Positions 1 to 35,581 of a DNA stretch of 64,000 nucleotides are shown piece after piece. This DNA comes from Escherichia coli. Lineage in GTDB: Bacteria > Pseudomonadota > Gammaproteobacteria > Enterobacterales > Enterobacteriaceae. A model generated the notes under the pieces. It was not told the DNA's origin. It worked only from the letters and a program-made list of their open reading frames with translations, and searched no databases. A program made the position numbers and the translations under genes. How positions within the stretch are numbered: position 1 is the first letter of the stretch; each line of letters begins with the position of its first letter. Location of the stretch: NCBI RefSeq assembly GCF_003334785.1, contig NZ_QOWV01000010.1. One strand, written 5' to 3'.

Positions 1-1561
1 GCTGGCGTGCCATCTGTTCGGTTTGCTGCATTAGCGCCAGTGAGCGGGTCAATTCGCCTTTGCAGTGCAGCACTTCACCCAGCACCGAGGTTGCCACAAT
101 GCGGCTATAGAACCAGCCCGGCGGCAGCTCTTCCAGTGCCAGTTTTGCCAGCCGTTCCGCTTCATCCGGATTACCATCGTTAATCGCCACCTGGGCGCGC
201 AGAGCGTTAAATTCTGCGTGCATGGTGTCTTCTCTGATGTCCTTGATTTCATGTTCAGCACGGGCTAGCAGGGTGTTAACTTCGCCGTAGCGATGTTGGC
301 TTTGCATCAGCCACGCCTGCAATAACACCAACTGCGGATTTTCCAGCAAGCTGTCCCACGGCAGGGCCTTAAGCGACTCTTCCAGCAGCGACAGTTCGCT
401 ATGGTTGAACAGACTCCAGGCGTGATTAAGCAGAATATCGCGCAGCATCAGCGCATCGCCTGCCGCCAGCGCATGATGAATCGCTTCGCTGGGAAATCCC
501 TGGGCCATCCAGCTTTCTGCGGCGGCACGGTGGATTTCCGGCAGCTCCGCCGCCAGTTCCCACTGGCAGCGCTGGCGCAGGAAGTTACCAAACAGCGGGT
601 GATAGCAGAACCACTCGCCGGTATCATCCATCCGCTGTAAAAACAGCCCCTGACGCTCAATCTCTTCGAGGCGCATTTGCCCGTTTTCTTCGCCGGTCAC
701 ACGGGTGATGAGGGCATCGTTCATTGAGCGCAAAATGGCGCTTTTCAACAGAAAATGGCGCGTTGCGAGATCGACGTTATCCAAAACCTCATCGACCAGA
801 TAATCCGAAAGATGGCTGGCATTGATTCCCGCCAGGCGGCGTGCCGACTTATGGGCTGAGTGGGTATTCTGCCGGGCGGAGAGGGCGATTAGCTGTAGTG
901 CCGTCGCCCAACCGGAAACGTCATCGCAAATCCGACTGCTTTCTGCGGCTTCAATCGGCGATGACAGACGGCAATCAAAAAACTGCTTCGCTTCCTGATG
1001 GGTAAATGCCAGTTGCTGACTGCCAATTTCCAGCAGTTGATCACGAACACGCAGATTGGCAATGCCCAGTTGCGGAAGGTTGCGTGACAACACCACCAGG
1101 GTGAGATTTTCTGGTTGATGGCGAATAAAGAAGCGCATTGACTCGTGGATCACTGGATTAGTGATCAGATGATAGTCATCGATGACCAGATAAAGTGGGC
1201 TATGCCATTCCGCCAGCTCAATGAAAAGCTGGGCGAAGAGTGACGTCAGGCTGGCATATTGCCGTTTTTGCGCCATCGTCTCACATATCGCACAGTGACC
1301 GTTGGTTGCCTGCTGCACGGCGGCAATGAGATAGCTGGCGAAACGCTCTTGCTGGTTATCACCTTCATCCAGCGAGTACCAGCCGATATCGTTTTTGCCT
1401 GCCGCCCACTGGGAAATGAGGGTGGTCTTTCCGTAGCCCGCAGGACTCGTGATCAGCGCCAGCCGGAAGTTGTTCGCGCCGGAAAGTTTAGCCAGCAGGC
1501 GCTCACGAACCACGGTATGGTCGAGTCGAACCGGACGACTTAGTTTTGACGGAATCAGCAT
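1..1561 (-). CDS. malT: MalT, maltose-regulon transcriptional activator; N-terminal part only (about 520 codons), 3' end lies beyond the window start
   Basis: Reverse-strand translation from ATG (complement 1559-1561) reads [23 protein letters not shown]...; no stop before window edge; divergent from malPQ. Confidence 0.9.
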
Positions 1562-1682
1562 AGTTAATCACTTCACTGTGGAAAATGAGGAAATATTATT
1601 TTTTTTGCGCTTCGTAATTAATGGTTATAAGGTCGGCCAGAAACCTTTCTAATGCAAGCGATGACGTTTTTTTATGTGTCTG

Positions 1683-1704
1683 AATTTGCACTGTGTCACA
1701 ATTC
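1683..1704 (-). promoter_or_regulatory. CRP-like site (TGTGA-N6-GCAAA) upstream of malT
   Basis: Reverse strand reads aaTTGTGAcacagtGCAAAttca about 125 bp upstream of the malT ATG; malT is known to be CRP-dependent. Confidence 0.4.
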
Positions 1705-2069
1705 CAAATCTTTATTAACAACTCACCTAAAACGACGCTGATCCAGCGTGAATACTGGTTTCCCTTATGTTCATCAGATTCATTTAAGCAAGGGTTTCTT
1801 CTTCATTCCTGATGAAAGTGCCATCTAAAAAGATGATCTTAATAAATCTATTAAGAATGAGATGGAGCACACTGGATATTTTACTTATGAAACTGTTTCA
1901 CTCCTTTACTTAATTTATAGAGTTACCTTCCGCTTTTTGAAAATACGCAACGGCCATTTTTTGCACTTAGATACAGATTTTCTGCGCTGTATTGCATTGA
2001 TTTGATGCTAATCCTGTGGTTTGCACTAGCTTTAAGTGGTTGAGATCACATTTCCTTGCTCATCCCCGC

Positions 2070-2105
2070 AACTCCTCCCTGCCTAATCCCCCGCAGGATG
2101 AGGAA
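2070..2105 (+). promoter_or_regulatory. malP promoter region with MalT-box-like motifs (GGAKGA and inverted TCCTCC)
   Basis: ctcctccc and ggatgagga motifs 70-100 bp upstream of the malP ATG. Confidence 0.4.
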
Positions 2106-2148
2106 GGTCAACATCGAGCCTGGCAAACTAGCGATAACGTTGTGTTGA

Positions 2149-4566
<2,418 letters not shown>

Positions 4567-29222: not shown

Positions 29223-31775
29223 TCAGAACAATTCCTGTGCCTCGCCATTATCGATAATGGTCGTTCCCACCTCGTGCACTGCCTGTTGTGTCGGCTGCGT
29301 ACCTTCGATGAAATACTCTTCGCGGCTGTTGCCACCATTAGCTAACTGCCCGGTGCTGCGATCGATATTCACCGTCACAATACCCGGTGGCGGCGTCAGC
29401 GGCTGCTCCGGCACACCTTCAAGAACGGCTTTCATATAAGCGTCCCATGCAGGCTGGGCACTCTTGGCACCGCCTTCGTAACCTGAGATCTGATCTTTAA
29501 TCGCTCCGGAAGCCGTTGTATGACCGAGATTACGACGGTGATCATCAAAGCCAATCCAGACCGAGGTCACAACGCCCGGACCGTAACCCGAGAACCACGC
29601 ATCTTTCGAACTGTTAGTGGTCCCGGTTTTCCCGCCGATATCGCGACGCTGCAAATCACGACCTGCACGCCAGCCAGTACCCTGCCAGCCTGGCTCACCA
29701 AAGATATTGGTGTTCAAAGCACTCTTAATCAGGAATGCCAGCGGAGTGTTGATGACGTGCGGTGCGTACTCCTGCGCGCCAGTCTTCGCCACTAACGCCT
29801 GATTTGCCTGCTCCAGCTGCGGCATTGGTACAGAAACATTCTGCTGCTCGCGGGAGATAGCGACATCTTCAACATCGTTATTTTCCAGCACGTTCGATTT
29901 CTGCGTATCACCGTAAATCACCGGAATATCGCATTCCGGGCAGGCTACTTTCGGTTTCGCTTCGAAAATCACGCCGCCCTGATCGTTTTCAATTTTGCTG
30001 ATAAACCACGGGTCCACCAGGAAGCCGCCGTTCGCCATGACCGCGTAGCCGCGCGCCACCTGCATTGGGGTGAAGGACGCTGAACCCAGCGCCAGCGATT
30101 CGGTGTGGACAATGTTTTGTGCCGGGAAGCCGAAGCGTTGCAGATATTCTGCAGCGTAGTCGACGCCCATCGCCCGCATTGCGCGTACCATCACCACGTT
30201 TTTCGACTGACCCAGCCCCTGACGTAAGCGAATTGGACCAGCATACTGCGGTGGTGAGTTCTTCGGCTGCCAGTCAGAACCGGCACTTGCATCCCAGCGA
30301 GAAATTGGCACATCGTTCAACATACTTGCCAGCGTCAGACCTTTATCCATCGCCGCGGTGTAGAGGAACGGTTTGATGTTGGAACCCACCTGACGCAGTG
30401 CCTGGGTGGCGCGGTTAAACTTGCTCTGATTGAAATCAAAGCCACCGACCAGCGCCATAACGGCACCGTTTTGCGGATTGATCGACACCAGCGCCGAGTT
30501 CACTTCCGGCACTTGTGCCAGCCACCATGCATCGCCAACCTGACGAACCCAGATTTGCTGACCCGTTTGCAGAACATCGGTCACTTTACGCGGCGTCGGT
30601 CCTTGCTGAGTATCCGAACGGTAAGGACGCGCCCAGCGAACGCCTTCCATACTCAATGCGACGGTCGACCCGTCCGCCAGCATCGCCGTCGCTTGCTGAG
30701 GATTGGCGCTGGTGACTGCGGCAGGCAGCAGCGGACCATAGGTTGGCAGCGCCTTCAGCGTATCGGTAATCTTGTTGTTATCCCACGCCGACTCGCCCAC
30801 TTTCCACAGCACATTTGCCGGGCCGCGATAGCCGTGGCGCATGTCGTAGTCCAGCACGTTATTACGTACCGCCTGCTGCGCGGCCTGCTGCACTTTGCGG
30901 GTGATGGTGGTGTAAATGCGATAACCGTCTTCATAGGCACTTTCGCCATAACGGTTATACATCTCCTGGCGCACCATTTCGCTCAGGTACGGCGCAGAGA
31001 AAGCAATCTCCGGCGCGTGATAGTTAGCGTTAATCGCCTCAGTGCGTGTCTGATCGAACTGTTGTTGGGTGATATACCCTTCATCCAGCATCCGCGACAG
31101 CACGACGTTACGCCGCGCGACGGCACGATCCATCGAGTAGAGCGGGTTGAAGGTGGAAGGCGCTTTCGGCAGCCCGGCTATCACCGCCATTTCGTTCAGC
31201 GTCAGTTGGTCGACCGTTTTTCCGAAATAGACTTGTGCCGCAGCACCGACACCATAGGCGCGGTAACCAAGGTAAATCTTGTTCAGATAAAGCTCGAGGA
31301 TCTCGTCTTTCGTCAGCAGCTGTTCAATGCGAATCGCGAGGAAGACTTCCTTAATCTTACGCATCAGCGTGCGTTCTGGACTGAGGAAGAAGTTTCTCGC
31401 CAGCTGCTGGGTAATGGTACTTGCCCCTTGTGACGCGTGACCGGAGAACAGCGCCACGCTTGCTGCACGGAAGATCCCCACCGGGTCAACGCCGTGATGC
31501 TCGTAGAAGCGGCTGTCTTCTGTCGCGATAAAGGCTTTCACCATCTCCGGTGGGATTTGATCCAACGTAACCGGAATACGACGTTTCTCACCGTATTGAG
31601 CAATCAGCTCGCCATCGGCGCTGTAAATCTGCATCGGAATTTGCAGGCGAACATCTTTTAATGTCGCCACATCCGGCAGTTGTGGCTCGATGTAGCGGTA
31701 TAGGCCATAAATCGAGCCTGCTCCCAGCAGAATGCAACAGACTGCAAGGATCAAAAAATACTTTACGAACTTCAC
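29223..31775 (-). CDS. mrcA: Penicillin-binding protein 1A (bifunctional transglycosylase/transpeptidase)
   Basis: Sequence recognised as PBP1a; likely GTG start giving MKFVKYFLILAV (850 aa); longest ORF begins 24 nt upstream at ATG 31799. Confidence 0.93.
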   Translation of the reverse strand: MKFVKYFLILAVCCILLGAGSIYGLYRYIEPQLPDVATLKDVRLQIPMQIYSADGELIAQYGEKRRIPVTLDQIPPEMVKAFIATEDSRFYEHHGVDPVGIFRAASVALFSGHASQGASTITQQLARNFFLSPERTLMRKIKEVFLAIRIEQLLTKDEILELYLNKIYLGYRAYGVGAAAQVYFGKTVDQLTLNEMAVIAGLPKAPSTFNPLYSMDRAVARRNVVLSRMLDEGYITQQQFDQTRTEAINANYHAPEIAFSAPYLSEMVRQEMYNRYGESAYEDGYRIYTTITRKVQQAAQQAVRNNVLDYDMRHGYRGPANVLWKVGESAWDNNKITDTLKALPTYGPLLPAAVTSANPQQATAMLADGSTVALSMEGVRWARPYRSDTQQGPTPRKVTDVLQTGQQIWVRQVGDAWWLAQVPEVNSALVSINPQNGAVMALVGGFDFNQSKFNRATQALRQVGSNIKPFLYTAAMDKGLTLASMLNDVPISRWDASAGSDWQPKNSPPQYAGPIRLRQGLGQSKNVVMVRAMRAMGVDYAAEYLQRFGFPAQNIVHTESLALGSASFTPMQVARGYAVMANGGFLVDPWFISKIENDQGGVIFEAKPKVACPECDIPVIYGDTQKSNVLENNDVEDVAISREQQNVSVPMPQLEQANQALVAKTGAQEYAPHVINTPLAFLIKSALNTNIFGEPGWQGTGWRAGRDLQRRDIGGKTGTTNSSKDAWFSGYGPGVVTSVWIGFDDHRRNLGHTTASGAIKDQISGYEGGAKSAQPAWDAYMKAVLEGVPEQPLTPPPGIVTVNIDRSTGQLANGGNSREEYFIEGTQPTQQAVHEVGTTIIDNGEAQELF

Positions 31776-31894
31776 TGGAAATTTCCCATTTAGTTTCATT
31801 TGGGCAGTTTATAAACAAACGCGCGGTAGTATAAAGGCAAGCCAGACGCATTGATATACCCGTCAGAGTGACGGGTGATAAGGAGATCATCACA

Positions 31895-32674
31895 ATGGCA
31901 TTTAAGATCTGGCAAATTGGTTTGCATTTACAACAGCAAGAAGCGGTAGCGGTTGCGATCGTGCGGGGCGCAAAAGAATGCTTTTTGCAACGCTGGTGGC
32001 GGTTGCCGCTGGAGAACGACATTATCAAAGATGGGCGGATTGTTGATGCGCAGCAGCTGGCTAAAACGTTGTTACCGTGGAGTCGCGAACTGCCGCAGCG
32101 TCATCACATTATGTTGGCGTTTCCCGCCAGTCGCACATTACAGCGGTCATTTCCGCGCCCGTCGATGTCCCTTGGTGAGCGGGAGCAAACGGCCTGGCTG
32201 TCAGGGACGATGGCCCGCGAGCTGGATATGGATCCGGACTCCCTGCGCTTCGATTACAGCGAAGACTCACTCAGTCCCGCCTATAACGTGACTGCCGCGC
32301 AAAGCAAAGAGCTGGCAACGCTGCTTACTCTGGCAGAAAGGTTGCGTGTTCATGTGAGCGCGATCACCCCGGATGCCAGTGCATTACAGCGATTCCTGCC
32401 TTTTTTACCTTCTCATCAGCAATGTCTGGCCTGGCGTGATAACGAACAGTGGCTGTGGGCGACGCGCTATAGCTGGGGGCGCAAACTGGCGGTGGGGATG
32501 ACTAGCGCGAAGGAGCTGGCGGCAGCGTTATCCGTTGATCCCGAAAGCGTCGCGATATGTGGCGAAGGCGGATTTGATCCCTGGGAGGCCGTTTCTGTTC
32601 GTCAGCCGCCGCTACCGCCGCCAGGTGGAGACTTTGCCATCGCGCTGGGGCTGGCGCTTGGGAAGGCGTACTGA
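31895..32674 (+). CDS. hofM: PilM-like type IV pilus/DNA-uptake assembly protein HofM
   Basis: Conserved start MAFKIWQIGL preceded by aaggag; 259 aa; divergent from mrcA. Confidence 0.88.
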   Translation: MAFKIWQIGLHLQQQEAVAVAIVRGAKECFLQRWWRLPLENDIIKDGRIVDAQQLAKTLLPWSRELPQRHHIMLAFPASRTLQRSFPRPSMSLGEREQTAWLSGTMARELDMDPDSLRFDYSEDSLSPAYNVTAAQSKELATLLTLAERLRVHVSAITPDASALQRFLPFLPSHQQCLAWRDNEQWLWATRYSWGRKLAVGMTSAKELAAALSVDPESVAICGEGGFDPWEAVSVRQPPLPPPGGDFAIALGLALGKAY

Positions 32675-33213
32675 TGAACCCGCCAATTAATTTTTTGCCC
32701 TGGCGACAGCAACGCCGGACCGCTTTTCTGCGTTTCTGGTTGCTGATGTTCGTTGCGCCTCTGCTGCTGGCCGTCGGGATAACGCTAATACTGCGTCTGA
32801 CAGGCAGCGCCGAAGCGCGCATAGACGCAGTTTTGCTTCAGGCGGAACAACAACTCGCCCGCAGCTTACAGATAACGAAGCCACGTTTGCTGGAGCAACA
32901 GCAGTTACGCGAACAGCGTTCGCAACGGCAGCGCCAGCGACAATTTACCCGCGACTGGCAATCTGCGCTGGAAGCACTGGCGGCGCTTTTACCCGAGCAC
33001 GCCTGGCTGACAACGATAAGCTGGCAGCAGGGAACGCTGGAGATCAAGGGGCTGACAACAAGCATTACCGCGTTAAACGCACTAGAAACGTCACTCCGCC
33101 AGGATGCATCTTTTCATCTCAATCAGCGGGGAGCCACGCAGCAGGATGCGCAGGGACGCTGGCAATTTGAGTATCAGTTAACAAGGAAGGTTAGCGATGA
33201 ACATGTTCTTTGA
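32674..33213 (+). CDS. hofN: PilN-like protein HofN
   Basis: 179-aa ORF, start overlaps hofM stop. Confidence 0.88.
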   Translation: MNPPINFLPWRQQRRTAFLRFWLLMFVAPLLLAVGITLILRLTGSAEARIDAVLLQAEQQLARSLQITKPRLLEQQQLREQRSQRQRQRQFTRDWQSALEALAALLPEHAWLTTISWQQGTLEIKGLTTSITALNALETSLRQDASFHLNQRGATQQDAQGRWQFEYQLTRKVSDEHVL

Positions 33214-33637
33214 CTGGTGGTTCGCCACATCACCCCGCCTCCGCCAGCTTTGCTGGGCATTCTGGTTGCTGATGTTAGTTACGCTCATTTTTCTGTCATC
33301 GACACACCATGAAGAGCGCGACGCATTAATTCGACTACGGGCAAGTCATCACCAGCAGTGGGCCGCACTGTATCGCCTGGTAGACACCACTCCCTTCAGC
33401 GAGGAAAAAACGCTGCCCTTTTCGCCACTGGATTTTCAGTTATCCGGCGCGCAACTGGTTTCCTGGCATCCATCCGCGCAGGGAGGCGAGTTGGCGTTGA
33501 AAACGCTGTGGGAAGCAGTGCCGTCGGCATTTACACGGCTGGCAGAGCGCAACGTCAGCGTGAGCCGTTTTTCGTTAAGCGTGGAAGGTGATGATCTTTT
33601 GTTCACGCTACAACTGGAGACGCCGCATGAGGGTTAA
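33197..33637 (+). CDS. hofO: PilO-like protein HofO
   Basis: 146-aa ORF overlapping hofN end by 17 nt. Confidence 0.85.
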   Translation: MNMFFDWWFATSPRLRQLCWAFWLLMLVTLIFLSSTHHEERDALIRLRASHHQQWAALYRLVDTTPFSEEKTLPFSPLDFQLSGAQLVSWHPSAQGGELALKTLWEAVPSAFTRLAERNVSVSRFSLSVEGDDLLFTLQLETPHEG

Positions 33638-34031
33638 ACGCTGGTTGTTGGCAGGTATTGCATTGTGCCTTTTAACCGGTATGCGTGACCCTTTTAAACC
33701 GCCGGAAGATCTATGCCGGATTAGCGAACTTAGCCAGTGGCGCTATCAGGGGATGGTAGGGCGAGGCGAGCGCATCATCGGTGTAATAAAAGACGGGCAA
33801 AAGAAATGGCGACGGGTGCAGCAAAACGATGTGCTGGAAAACGGCTGGACAATTTTACAGCTGACGCCAGACGTACTAACGCTGGGTACCGGGACAAACT
33901 GCGAACCGCCACAATGGTTGTGGCAACGGCAAGGAGATACAAATGAAGCAATGGATAGCCGCACTACTGTTGATGCTGATACCCGGCGTACAGGCGGCAA
34001 AGCCGCAAAAAGTGACGCTGATGGTGGATGA
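33627..34031 (+). CDS. hofP: PilP-like protein HofP
   Basis: Start MRVKRWLLAGIALCLL (signal-peptide-like), 134 aa; overlaps hofO end and first 89 nt of hofQ. Confidence 0.8.
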   Translation: MRVKRWLLAGIALCLLTGMRDPFKPPEDLCRISELSQWRYQGMVGRGERIIGVIKDGQKKWRRVQQNDVLENGWTILQLTPDVLTLGTGTNCEPPQWLWQRQGDTNEAMDSRTTVDADTRRTGGKAAKSDADGG

Positions 34032-35181
34032 CGTTCCGGTAGCTCAGGTGTTGCAGGCGCTGGCTGAACAGGAGAAGTTGAACCTGGTCGTGTCGCCAGA
34101 CGTCAGCGGTACGGTGTCGTTACATCTAACAGATGTTCCCTGGAAGCAGGCACTACAAACTGTAGTGAAAAGCGCCGGACTGATAACGCGGCAGGAAGGC
34201 AACATTCTCTCAGTGCATTCCATTGCCTGGCAGAATAACAATATCGCCCGCCAGGAGGCGGAGCAGGCGCGGGCGCAGGCAAATCTGCCGCTGGAAAATC
34301 GCAGTATAACCCTGCAATACGCCGACGCGGGAGAACTGGCGAAAGCGGGGGAGAAGCTACTGAGTGCCAAAGGGAGTATGACCGTCGATAAACGCACCAA
34401 TCGCCTTTTGCTACGAGATAACAAAACGGCGTTAAGCGCGCTTGAACAGTGGGTAGCGCAAATGGATCTGCCGGTCGGGCAGGTTGAGCTGTCGGCGCAT
34501 ATTGTCACCATTAATGAAAAAAGTTTGCGTGAGTTAGGCGTGAAATGGACGCTGGCCGATGCGCAACACGCTGGTGGCGTTGGGCAAGTCACCACGCTTG
34601 GTAGCGACCTCTCCGTAGCGACGGCGACAACGCATGTCGGTTTTAACATTGGGCGCATCAACGGACGCTTGCTGGATCTTGAGCTTTCCGCGCTCGAACA
34701 AAAACAGCAGCTGGATATTATCGCCAGTCCGCGTCTGCTGGCCTCACATCTTCAGCCTGCCAGCATTAAACAGGGGAGCGAAATTCCATATCAGGTTTCC
34801 AGCGGGGAAAGTGGCGCGACGTCGGTGGAATTTAAAGAGGCCGTCCTGGGGATGGAGGTCACGCCCACGGTGTTACAAAAAGGTCGCATCCGGCTGAAAT
34901 TACACATCAGCCAGAACGTTCCGGGGCAGGTGCTACAGCAGGCCGATGGCGAAGTGCTGGCGATTGATAAGCAGGAGATCGAAACGCAGGTCGAGGTCAA
35001 AAGCGGAGAAACGTTGGCGCTGGGCGGCATTTTTACCCGTAAAAATAAATCGGGTCAGGATAGCGTACCGTTGCTTGGCGACATTCCCTGGTTCGGGCAA
35101 TTATTTCGTCATGACGGAAAAGAAGATGAACGACGCGAGTTAGTGGTGTTTATCACGCCACGACTGGTTTCCAGTGAGTAA
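33943..35181 (+). CDS. hofQ: Secretin HofQ (PilQ/ComE-like outer-membrane channel)
   Basis: 412-aa ORF with N-terminal signal peptide; secretin C-terminal region. Confidence 0.92.
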   Translation: MKQWIAALLLMLIPGVQAAKPQKVTLMVDDVPVAQVLQALAEQEKLNLVVSPDVSGTVSLHLTDVPWKQALQTVVKSAGLITRQEGNILSVHSIAWQNNNIARQEAEQARAQANLPLENRSITLQYADAGELAKAGEKLLSAKGSMTVDKRTNRLLLRDNKTALSALEQWVAQMDLPVGQVELSAHIVTINEKSLRELGVKWTLADAQHAGGVGQVTTLGSDLSVATATTHVGFNIGRINGRLLDLELSALEQKQQLDIIASPRLLASHLQPASIKQGSEIPYQVSSGESGATSVEFKEAVLGMEVTPTVLQKGRIRLKLHISQNVPGQVLQQADGEVLAIDKQEIETQVEVKSGETLALGGIFTRKNKSGQDSVPLLGDIPWFGQLFRHDGKEDERRELVVFITPRLVSSE

Positions 35182-35581
35182 ACAGCCGTAAAAGCGGTAA
35201 TGTTTTTACGCTGAACGTGTTTCATCTATTTGACGCGCGCAGGTATTTAGCATACAAGGAGTACCGATTTGAGAGTTGGTGCTCTTCGCTGCCTGCGTTC
35301 CATGATGATGATTTATCATTCAGGCGGCATTTTGCTGTCTTTTTTACGCTAATCTTACCCGGTGATTTATCGCCAGAGCGGTGGTAGCAAGGCAGCGCGC
35401 TTGCAGCGACCAGATATGCAGAGGGATGGGTGATTTATTCAGTTGCCAAACCCGCTGGAGTATTGAGATAATTTTCAGTCTGACTCTCGCAATATCTTAT
35501 GAGGTTTCAGTTCATGTCCTGCGGCGCTCTCTGAGCGAAGCGGGTTTATCATTAACGAATAGTCTTAGTAGTACCGAAAAA

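Follow-up and report, generated by a model that had tools for sequence, protein, structure and literature searches.

The hofMNOPQ operon in its genomic setting

What machine do the five hof genes of Escherichia coli (hofM, -N, -O, -P, and -Q) belong to, and are they still of use to the bacterium? The locus is part of a long-standing puzzle: why has E. coli retained the full set of genes for a competence/type IV pilus system that it leaves silent? We examined it in a window of 64,000 bp of E. coli DNA (the whole stretch that was analyzed, from contig NZ_QOWV01000010.1), for which we computed identities, folds, gene integrity, selection, gene overlaps, and the location of a published CRP-binding fragment. 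With a probability of roughly 0.9, we consider hofMNOPQ to be the E. coli counterpart of pilMNOPQ/comABCDE, that is, the envelope-spanning “alignment” part of a chromosomal type IVa pilus/competence machine. The genes, their regulation by Sxy and CRP, PpdD piliation, and DNA uptake have already been published, so this is no new kind of system; the additions for specialists are the family-wide junction overlaps (which support coupled translation), an explanation of the long hofP/hofQ overlap, a probably nucleotide-free, GspL-sized HofM, an altered HofM C-terminus in the O157:H7 lineage, and a strikingly conserved, presumed mrcA/hofM control region.

Gene coordinates follow the RefSeq annotation of strain M217, whose E. 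coli chromosome is 100% identical here (window position = locus coordinate + 27999), and a mechanical list of open reading frames (ORFs); the two sources agree. Five co-directional genes lie on the forward strand in the order M-N-O-P-Q: hofM (31,895-32,674; 259 aa, a cytoplasmic PilM/GspL-like actin-fold protein), hofN (32,674-33,213; 179 aa, a bitopic PilN homologue), hofO (33,197-33,637; 146 aa, a bitopic GspM/PilO-like protein), hofP (33,627-34,031; 134 aa, a periplasmic PilP/GspC HR-domain protein), and hofQ (33,943-35,181; 412 aa, an outer-membrane secretin). The gene mrcA (29,223-31,775, reverse strand) starts with a GTG 119 bp from hofM and is therefore divergent from the hof genes; on the other side, aroK, aroB, damX, dam, rpe, gph, and trpS follow in this order. 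An earlier sequence-only reading of this DNA had described the divergence from mrcA, overlaps of 1 (hofM/hofN), 17 (hofN/hofO), 11 (hofO/hofP), and 89 nt (hofP/hofQ), and PilM-, PilN-, PilO-, and PilP-like proteins with a secretin; the first two are exact in both the ORF list and the RefSeq annotation, and the protein identities are borne out by family, profile, and structure matches.

The copy in the window contains no frameshift and no premature or internal stop (sporadic disrupted alleles elsewhere in the species are described below), and the 4-kb stretch around the hof genes is 100% identical to many complete E. coli genomes. One scan of species-representative genomes gave 80 Enterobacteriaceae loci, all with hofM-hofQ in the same order between mrcA and aroK. 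hofMNOPQ is an intact, well-known E. coli operon, which the earlier reading had described correctly; the locus is ordinary and already published. No pilin, extension ATPase, platform protein, minor pilin, or prepilin peptidase gene is found within the 64-kb window; published work places these remaining pilus genes at ppdD-hofBC, ppdAB-ygdB-ppdC, and gspO (10.1101/856302).

Identity of the five proteins

Judged by its profile and structure matches, HofQ is unambiguously a PilQ secretin. It scores 855 bits against NF007851 (cutoff 598) and passes the PilQ model TIGR02515 (449 bits, cutoff 284), and it fails the GspD model TIGR02517 (194.5 bits, cutoff 351). Its Pfam domains are STN/N0, Secretin_N (N1), and Secretin, preceded by a signal peptide that ends in VQA. 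Residues 23-409 of HofQ align to residues 158-569 of Vibrio cholerae PilQ (6w6m; E = 2e-74), and HofQ therefore lacks the AMIN region. RefSeq names the protein “DNA uptake porin,” in line with a different view of the locus, in which HofQ is mainly a stand-alone DNA/nutrient porin for feeding on DNA, and HofM-HofP are accessory or dispensable. The channel of a secretin, however, is gated and opens around a fiber, and HofQ is a bona fide member of the PilQ family; HofP, moreover, carries an HR domain, which in homologous systems docks on the N0 domain of the secretin.

The HofP model matches PilP and GspC HR folds, the top match being GspC's HR domain in complex with GspD (3oss_C), and the protein has the beta-sandwich HR domain of the secretin-N0-docking type that characterizes PilP (PF04351). 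A profile comparison with PDB sequences likewise links HofP to PilP. Its core comprises residues ~30-105, in which C30 and C92 are invariant cysteines. HofP also has an RDPF motif that does not vary.

The AlphaFold2 model of HofM (mean predicted local distance difference test score, pLDDT, of 90.8) has the actin-like fold of FtsA and PilM. Foldseek matched it to Pseudomonas aeruginosa PilM (5eou/5eoy; E = 6e-14, query-normalized TM-score 0.67-0.73), to Thermus thermophilus PilM (2ych; E = 3e-11), and to the cytoplasmic domain of EpsL/GspL (1yf5/4pht; E = 2e-11, target-normalized TM-score 0.65). HofM, at 259 aa, is ~95 aa shorter than PilM (chains of ~350-395 residues), and given its size, it fits the cytoplasmic GspL/EpsL domain about as well as it fits PilM. 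The profile of HofM orthologues matches Myxococcus xanthus PilM (3jc8) with E = 3e-5, and the C-terminal FAVALGLAL helix of HofM is common to PilM.

HofN has the three features expected of PilN: an N-terminal peptide of the I-N-L-L-P type, one transmembrane segment (a hydrophobic stretch at about residues 20-42, read from the sequence), and a periplasmic PilN domain (PF05137, 3e-9). The profile of 78 HofN orthologues aligns from residue 1 with M. xanthus PilN (3jc8_Na, 2e-7). The peptide itself, INFLPWR, occupies residues 5-11, and in these orthologues N6, W10, and R11 never change, and conservation of L8 and P9 is 90% or higher. HofO is covered by the Pfam family PF25319, “HofO EspM-like domain” (2e-25); 9 of 77 HofO orthologues also match the T2SSM (GspM) family PF04612 (best 4e-7), and HofO gives no match to the PilO family PF04350.

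Several features of the proteins weigh against an assignment to the PilMNOPQ apparatus. HofM fails the sequence models of PilM, with only 16.1 bits against TIGR01175 (cutoff 133) and E = 0.047 against PF11104, and the phosphate-1 nucleotide-binding motif of PilM (D-x-G-S/T...K) is not present in it: in a profile alignment, GLDIGSTSIK of PilM stands opposite GLHIQQDEV of HofM, in which H11 is invariant among 73 orthologues. The HofO profile finds nothing among PDB sequences, including those of solved PilO structures, and a profile comparison of HofO with HofN shows no relationship (probability 3%). HofP lacks the lipobox of PilP; the consensus N-terminus of its orthologues is ...LxLLTGMRDPF with no conserved cysteine, and C17 of E. 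coli HofP is not conserved and lies outside a canonical lipobox. For HofM, the replaced motif (GLHIQQDE) and the GspL-sized fold suggest that it is probably a nucleotide-free, GspL-sized version of PilM, which would have lost ATP binding.

Conservation, selection, and disrupted alleles

The hof cluster is present in every complete E. coli genome (5,426 of 5,426). Identity to the window proteins in Citrobacter/Salmonella is ~66% for HofM, ~48% for HofN, ~44% for HofO, ~57% for HofP, and ~84% for HofQ, with AroK at 97%; in Klebsiella/Enterobacter the corresponding values are ~45, ~36, ~35, ~42, and ~70%, with AroK again at 97%. The ratio of nonsynonymous to synonymous substitution rates (dN/dS, Nei-Gojobori) is well below 1 for all five genes at each evolutionary depth tested: 0.10-0.24 for hofM, 0.14-0.26 for hofN, 0.17-0.25 for hofO, 0.22-0.35 for hofP, and 0.03-0.08 for hofQ, compared with 0.02-0.07 for aroK. 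The hofMNOPQ genes are real genes under purifying selection, which is weaker for hofM-hofP. That HofQ is far more conserved than its partners (dN/dS of 0.03-0.08 vs 0.10-0.35) favors a stand-alone porin; against it, hofM-hofP are themselves retained under purifying selection, with coupled translation signals (see below).

The very fast divergence of HofM, HofN, HofO, and HofP, down to 35-45% identity beside an AroK at 97%, and the existence of disrupted alleles in some lineages have to be counted against a working alignment complex, and both would suit an evolutionary relic, i.e., ORFs that persist and no longer contribute to the fitness of E. coli. Disrupted alleles, however, are clonal. Genomes of the O157:H7 lineage typically lack 1 nt at the 3′ end of their hofM gene (position 32,645), a deletion counted in 288 genomes with the common O157 background and in 7 with a linked single-nucleotide polymorphism (~295 of 5,426); it rewrites the last 8 residues of HofM, so that the invariant L253 and A254 are lost, and appends 5 more. 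Other lesions include a mid-gene hofM frameshift in strain 89-3156, a hofQ gene in strain CNR20180903 that is cut after about codon 49 and fused to a truncated barA, with most of hofQ lost, and in-frame stops in hofO and hofP of the E. albertii type strain (candidate decay or assembly error). Our suspicion that the hofM frameshift and a stop in hofN might be common was rejected by allele-specific 61-mers, which gave hofN W10* (TGG to TAG) in 6 of the 5,426 genomes and the deletion haplotype of NZRM3614 in 7. Against a relic stand the dN/dS values at every depth, the presence of the cluster in all 5,426 genomes and, with the same junctions, across the Enterobacteriaceae, and the nature of the alleles themselves: the truncating ones are rare and clonal, and the common O157:H7 frameshift alters only the last 8 residues.

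RefSeq labels the hofM genes of the O157 lineage “frameshifted”; the first description of PpdD (“haemorrhagic coli”) pili also comes from O157:H7. Outside E. coli, hofM, hofN, and hofQ of Citrobacter koseri NCTC10786 are each split over several frames, and hofM of Phytobacter massiliensis is split; both are candidates for decay or assembly error. One record titled Chryseobacterium sp. 18061 (CACSKA010000004.1) contains a typical Enterobacteriaceae hofMNOPQ-aroK locus, with HofQ 72% and AroK 97% identical to E. coli, and is probably mislabelled or contaminated. One match to the hof cluster in the E. coli genome collection is a plasmid record, not a chromosome.

Conserved gene overlaps

The extensive overlaps are a family-wide property of the operon. 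Across about 80 Enterobacteriaceae species, 62 of 82 loci have a hofM/hofN overlap of 1 or 4 nt, the hofN/hofO overlap is 17 nt in 52 of 81, the hofO/hofP overlap is 11 nt in 70 of 83, and the hofP/hofQ overlap is 89 nt in 42 of 82, the rest being mostly 80-98 nt. A Shine-Dalgarno (SD)-like hexamer is found 5-8 nt upstream of every hof start, and for hofN-hofQ it lies within the preceding gene. Judging from a junction architecture that is kept across genera despite the divergence of the proteins, the overlaps are not annotation accidents, and we infer that the five cistrons are probably coupled translationally through them.

The dual-coding stretch of hofP and hofQ (33,943-34,031, forward strand, 89 nt) places the tail of HofP in one frame and, in the +1 frame, the signal peptide and the first mature residues of HofQ. 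A wrong hofQ start can be rejected as the cause of this long overlap: the annotated ATG is conserved and begins a typical signal peptide. The conserved core of HofP stops at about residue 105, exactly at the hofQ start, and the remaining tail (residues 106-134) is variable, of low complexity, and predicted to be disordered. Entropy by codon position is flat within the overlap (1.01/0.78/1.05), and the next 30 hofQ codons have a third-position excess (0.61/0.43/1.23). The TGA stop of hofP is embedded in the codons of a conserved HofQ ...V-D-D (GAT GAx), and in a few genera the HofP tail is shorter, giving overlaps of 4, 38, or 62 nt. The overlap is real, as far as its sequence pattern tells, and the HofP tail looks like a passenger; its length is explained by an unconstrained tail that runs on to a stop fixed by conserved HofQ codons.

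Function and mechanism

Induction by Sxy and CRP, hofQ-dependent DNA uptake, and piliation on forced expression are known from published work. Expression of sxy leads to processed PpdD pilin and low-level DNA uptake, and the sxy-dependent uptake and transformation are abolished in a hofQ::kan mutant (PMC3330819). A tac-driven hofBC-hofMNOPQ-ppdAB-ygdB-ppdC-gspO clone, combined with ppdD, gives shearable PpdD pili in a laboratory E. coli strain (10.1101/856302). It followed an earlier reconstitution of the pilus of enterohaemorrhagic E. coli (EHEC) by Luna Rico et al. (2019), and HofN binds PpdD in the EHEC system. In addition, hofQ mutants of uropathogenic E. coli colonize the mouse kidney poorly (PMC2649431).

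Combining these reports with the protein identities, we infer the following arrangement. HofM, in the cytoplasm, would clamp the N-terminal INFLPWR peptide of HofN with its actin fold; HofN and HofO, both single-pass inner-membrane proteins, would pair in the periplasm; the PilP/GspC-type beta-sandwich of HofP would contact the N0 domain of HofQ; and HofQ would form a gated channel in the outer membrane, an exit for the PpdD fiber and an entrance for DNA. The remaining parts (pilin, ATPase, platform protein, minor pilins, and prepilin peptidase) would be supplied from ppdD-hofBC, ppdAB-ygdB-ppdC, and gspO.

A further point against this arrangement is that no natural condition giving pili or transformation has been found in K-12 (PMC3330819). 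The sequence-only reading had stated that pilus assembly from these genes is not known under laboratory conditions, which is outdated: PpdD pili do form on forced expression (10.1101/856302), although native expression stays undetectable in K-12 and the ECOR strains, with no pilin in 72 ECOR strains (PMC3330819). The lack of pili and pilin in K-12 and these 72 strains without artificial sxy expression speaks for a relic; the published hofQ phenotypes (PMC3330819, PMC2649431) speak against it, and together with the selection and distribution given above they leave a relic highly improbable.

The link of the hof genes to DNA uptake and to the use of DNA as a nutrient, also part of the earlier reading, is right. 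DNA-as-nutrient phenotypes and the induction of hofQ by DNA as a nitrogen source (PMC3330819, PMC9273947), and the rise of hofQ mRNA caused by the small RNA FimR2 in stationary phase (PMC9723502), would fit a porin for feeding on DNA, which is, however, at odds with the pili formed when the whole set is force-expressed (10.1101/856302). We regard HofQ acting mainly as a stand-alone porin as very unlikely. The two views do not exclude each other, because competence machines take up DNA via the pilus.

Comparison with known systems

One close parallel is comABCDE of Haemophilus influenzae, which has the same five-gene order adjoining the gene for penicillin-binding protein 1a (PBP1a; ponA/mrcA), a CRP-S site that overlaps the upstream ORF, dependence on Sxy and CRP, a short secretin without AMIN domains, and a role in DNA uptake (PMC1635313). 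E. coli differs in having two weak predicted CRP-S sites instead of one (PMC1635313), in that comF is detached from its operon, and in showing no natural competence without forced sxy expression (PMC3330819).

The pilMNOPQ operons of P. aeruginosa and M. xanthus share with hofMNOPQ the gene order, the PilM fold, a PilN-like HofN, the PilP HR domain, and the PilQ family. Identities in structural alignments are only 9-21%, however, and E. coli departs from these systems in its small HofM, with His/Gln where PilM has its DxGS phosphate-1 motif, in a HofP without a lipobox, and in a HofQ without the N-terminal AMIN-bearing region of PilQ. V. cholerae PilQ, the best solved relative of HofQ, comes from a DNA-uptake pilus controlled by TfoX (Sxy); at its N-terminus are ~135 further residues, the AMIN domain, which are missing from HofQ.

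Similarities also extend to the type II secretion system: HofM has the size of cytoplasmic GspL and matches its structures, HofO orthologues match T2SSM, and HofP resembles the GspC HR domain. On the other hand, HofQ falls on the PilQ side of the secretin models and not on the GspD side, HofM and HofN are separate proteins and not one GspL, and there are no adjacent pseudopilin or GspE genes at hof.

The mrcA-hofM region

How is the operon switched on? According to Cameron and Redfield (PMC1635313), the promoter of yrfD (= hofM) has two predicted CRP-S sites and binds CRP weakly but specifically, and Sxy induces yrfD 16-fold provided that CRP and cAMP are present; the dependence on Sxy and CRP was also reported in PMC3330819. 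The silence of the operon in ordinary culture is explained by a promoter that requires Sxy (TfoX) together with cAMP-CRP, which would act at weak predicted CRP-S sites within the first part of mrcA. The sequence-only reading had called the inducing signal unclear, which is outdated as regards the inducers: Sxy with cAMP-CRP induces the operon (PMC1635313), and hofQ mRNA responds to a DNA nitrogen source (PMC9273947) and to FimR2 (PMC9723502).

We located the primers of the yrfD bandshift fragment exactly, at 31,619-31,744, so that the fragment lies wholly inside the mrcA coding sequence. Its sole CRP-S-like cores are at 31,630-31,645 and 31,711-31,726, with 3 mismatches each and C6 kept; one lies at either end of the fragment, in agreement with the published description (PMC1635313). 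It must be set against Sxy/CRP control of the operon that no CRP-S core (TGCGA-N6-TCGCA) with at most 2 mismatches is found upstream of hofM, and that matches to this core in the whole window are below chance.

Part of this region is conserved to an unusual degree. A near-invariant block of ~150 bp (31,708-31,858) spans mrcA codons 1-22 together with 83 bp of the adjoining spacer toward hofM; it is conserved even at synonymous sites, in contrast to the Hof proteins encoded beside it, whose identity drops to 35-45%. In 75 Enterobacteriaceae species, the third positions of codons 1-22 have a mean entropy of 0.32, with 11 of 22 invariant, compared with 1.26 and 0 of 34 for codons 23-56; in the intergenic part 50 of 83 columns are invariant, and the 36 bp adjoining the hofM ATG vary freely. 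Within the block lie the second of the CRP-S candidates and a TTTATA-N16-TATAAA motif picked out by eye, and the block is presumed to be a shared or divergent control region. A more specific proposal, which we hold to be unlikely, is that it would act as a bidirectional module tying PBP1a to expression of the competence pilus, via the Sxy/CRP-S site in mrcA and at least one further factor. The start of mrcA is annotated differently in our two sources, as an ATG at 31,799 in the mechanical list (858 aa) and as a GTG at 31,775 in RefSeq (850 aa); the 24 nt between these starts are inside the near-invariant block.

Folding of the mrcA-hofM intergenic region showed no unusual stability on either strand (z = −0.64 and −0.69), so a structured leader RNA is unsupported, and no part of the 64-kb window matched an Rfam family. 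The hofM leader (31,859-31,885, forward strand) contains a perfect 7-bp palindrome (CCCGTCA-GAG-TGACGGG, 31,859-31,875), followed by the SD sequence AAGGAG (31,880-31,885). The palindrome is largely retained in related genera; we do not claim that it is functional, because its covariation is weak (76% of cells paired vs 73% in shuffles, and 25 double changes vs 17.7 ± 3 expected).

The boundary with aroK

The sequence-only reading had the hof genes feed into the operon that begins with aroK, which is not demonstrated: a gap of 400 nt with a terminator-like hairpin and two conserved promoter-like blocks separates hofQ from aroK. The hairpin with its T-run (35,185-35,208, forward strand) directly follows the hofQ stop (dG = −13.4, z = −3.6); in 21 representative species its position is kept and the sequence of its stem differs. 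The promoter-like blocks, both near-invariant across genera, are TTGACG-N17-TACAAG (35,230-35,258) and, upstream of aroK on the forward strand, TTGCCA-N18-TGaGATAAT (35,443-35,472); the latter is not part of hof and marks the operon boundary. From the hairpin and the conserved promoter-like sites, hof transcription would normally end before aroK, most likely at the hairpin just after hofQ. The near-invariance of these sites argues that aroK has promoters of its own, and in the 1990s Løbner-Olesen and colleagues reportedly described promoters upstream of aroK.

The hofQ-aroK gap also contains a near-invariant AAGGAGTACCGATTTGAG (SD-like sequence plus TTG; window positions 35,256-35,352). In Escherichia it opens an ORF of 27 codons (MRVGALRCLRSMMMIYHSGGILLSFLR), and in other genera one of 4-50 codons with unconserved sequence; this short ORF may act as a leader ORF or may just belong to the 5′ region of aroK.

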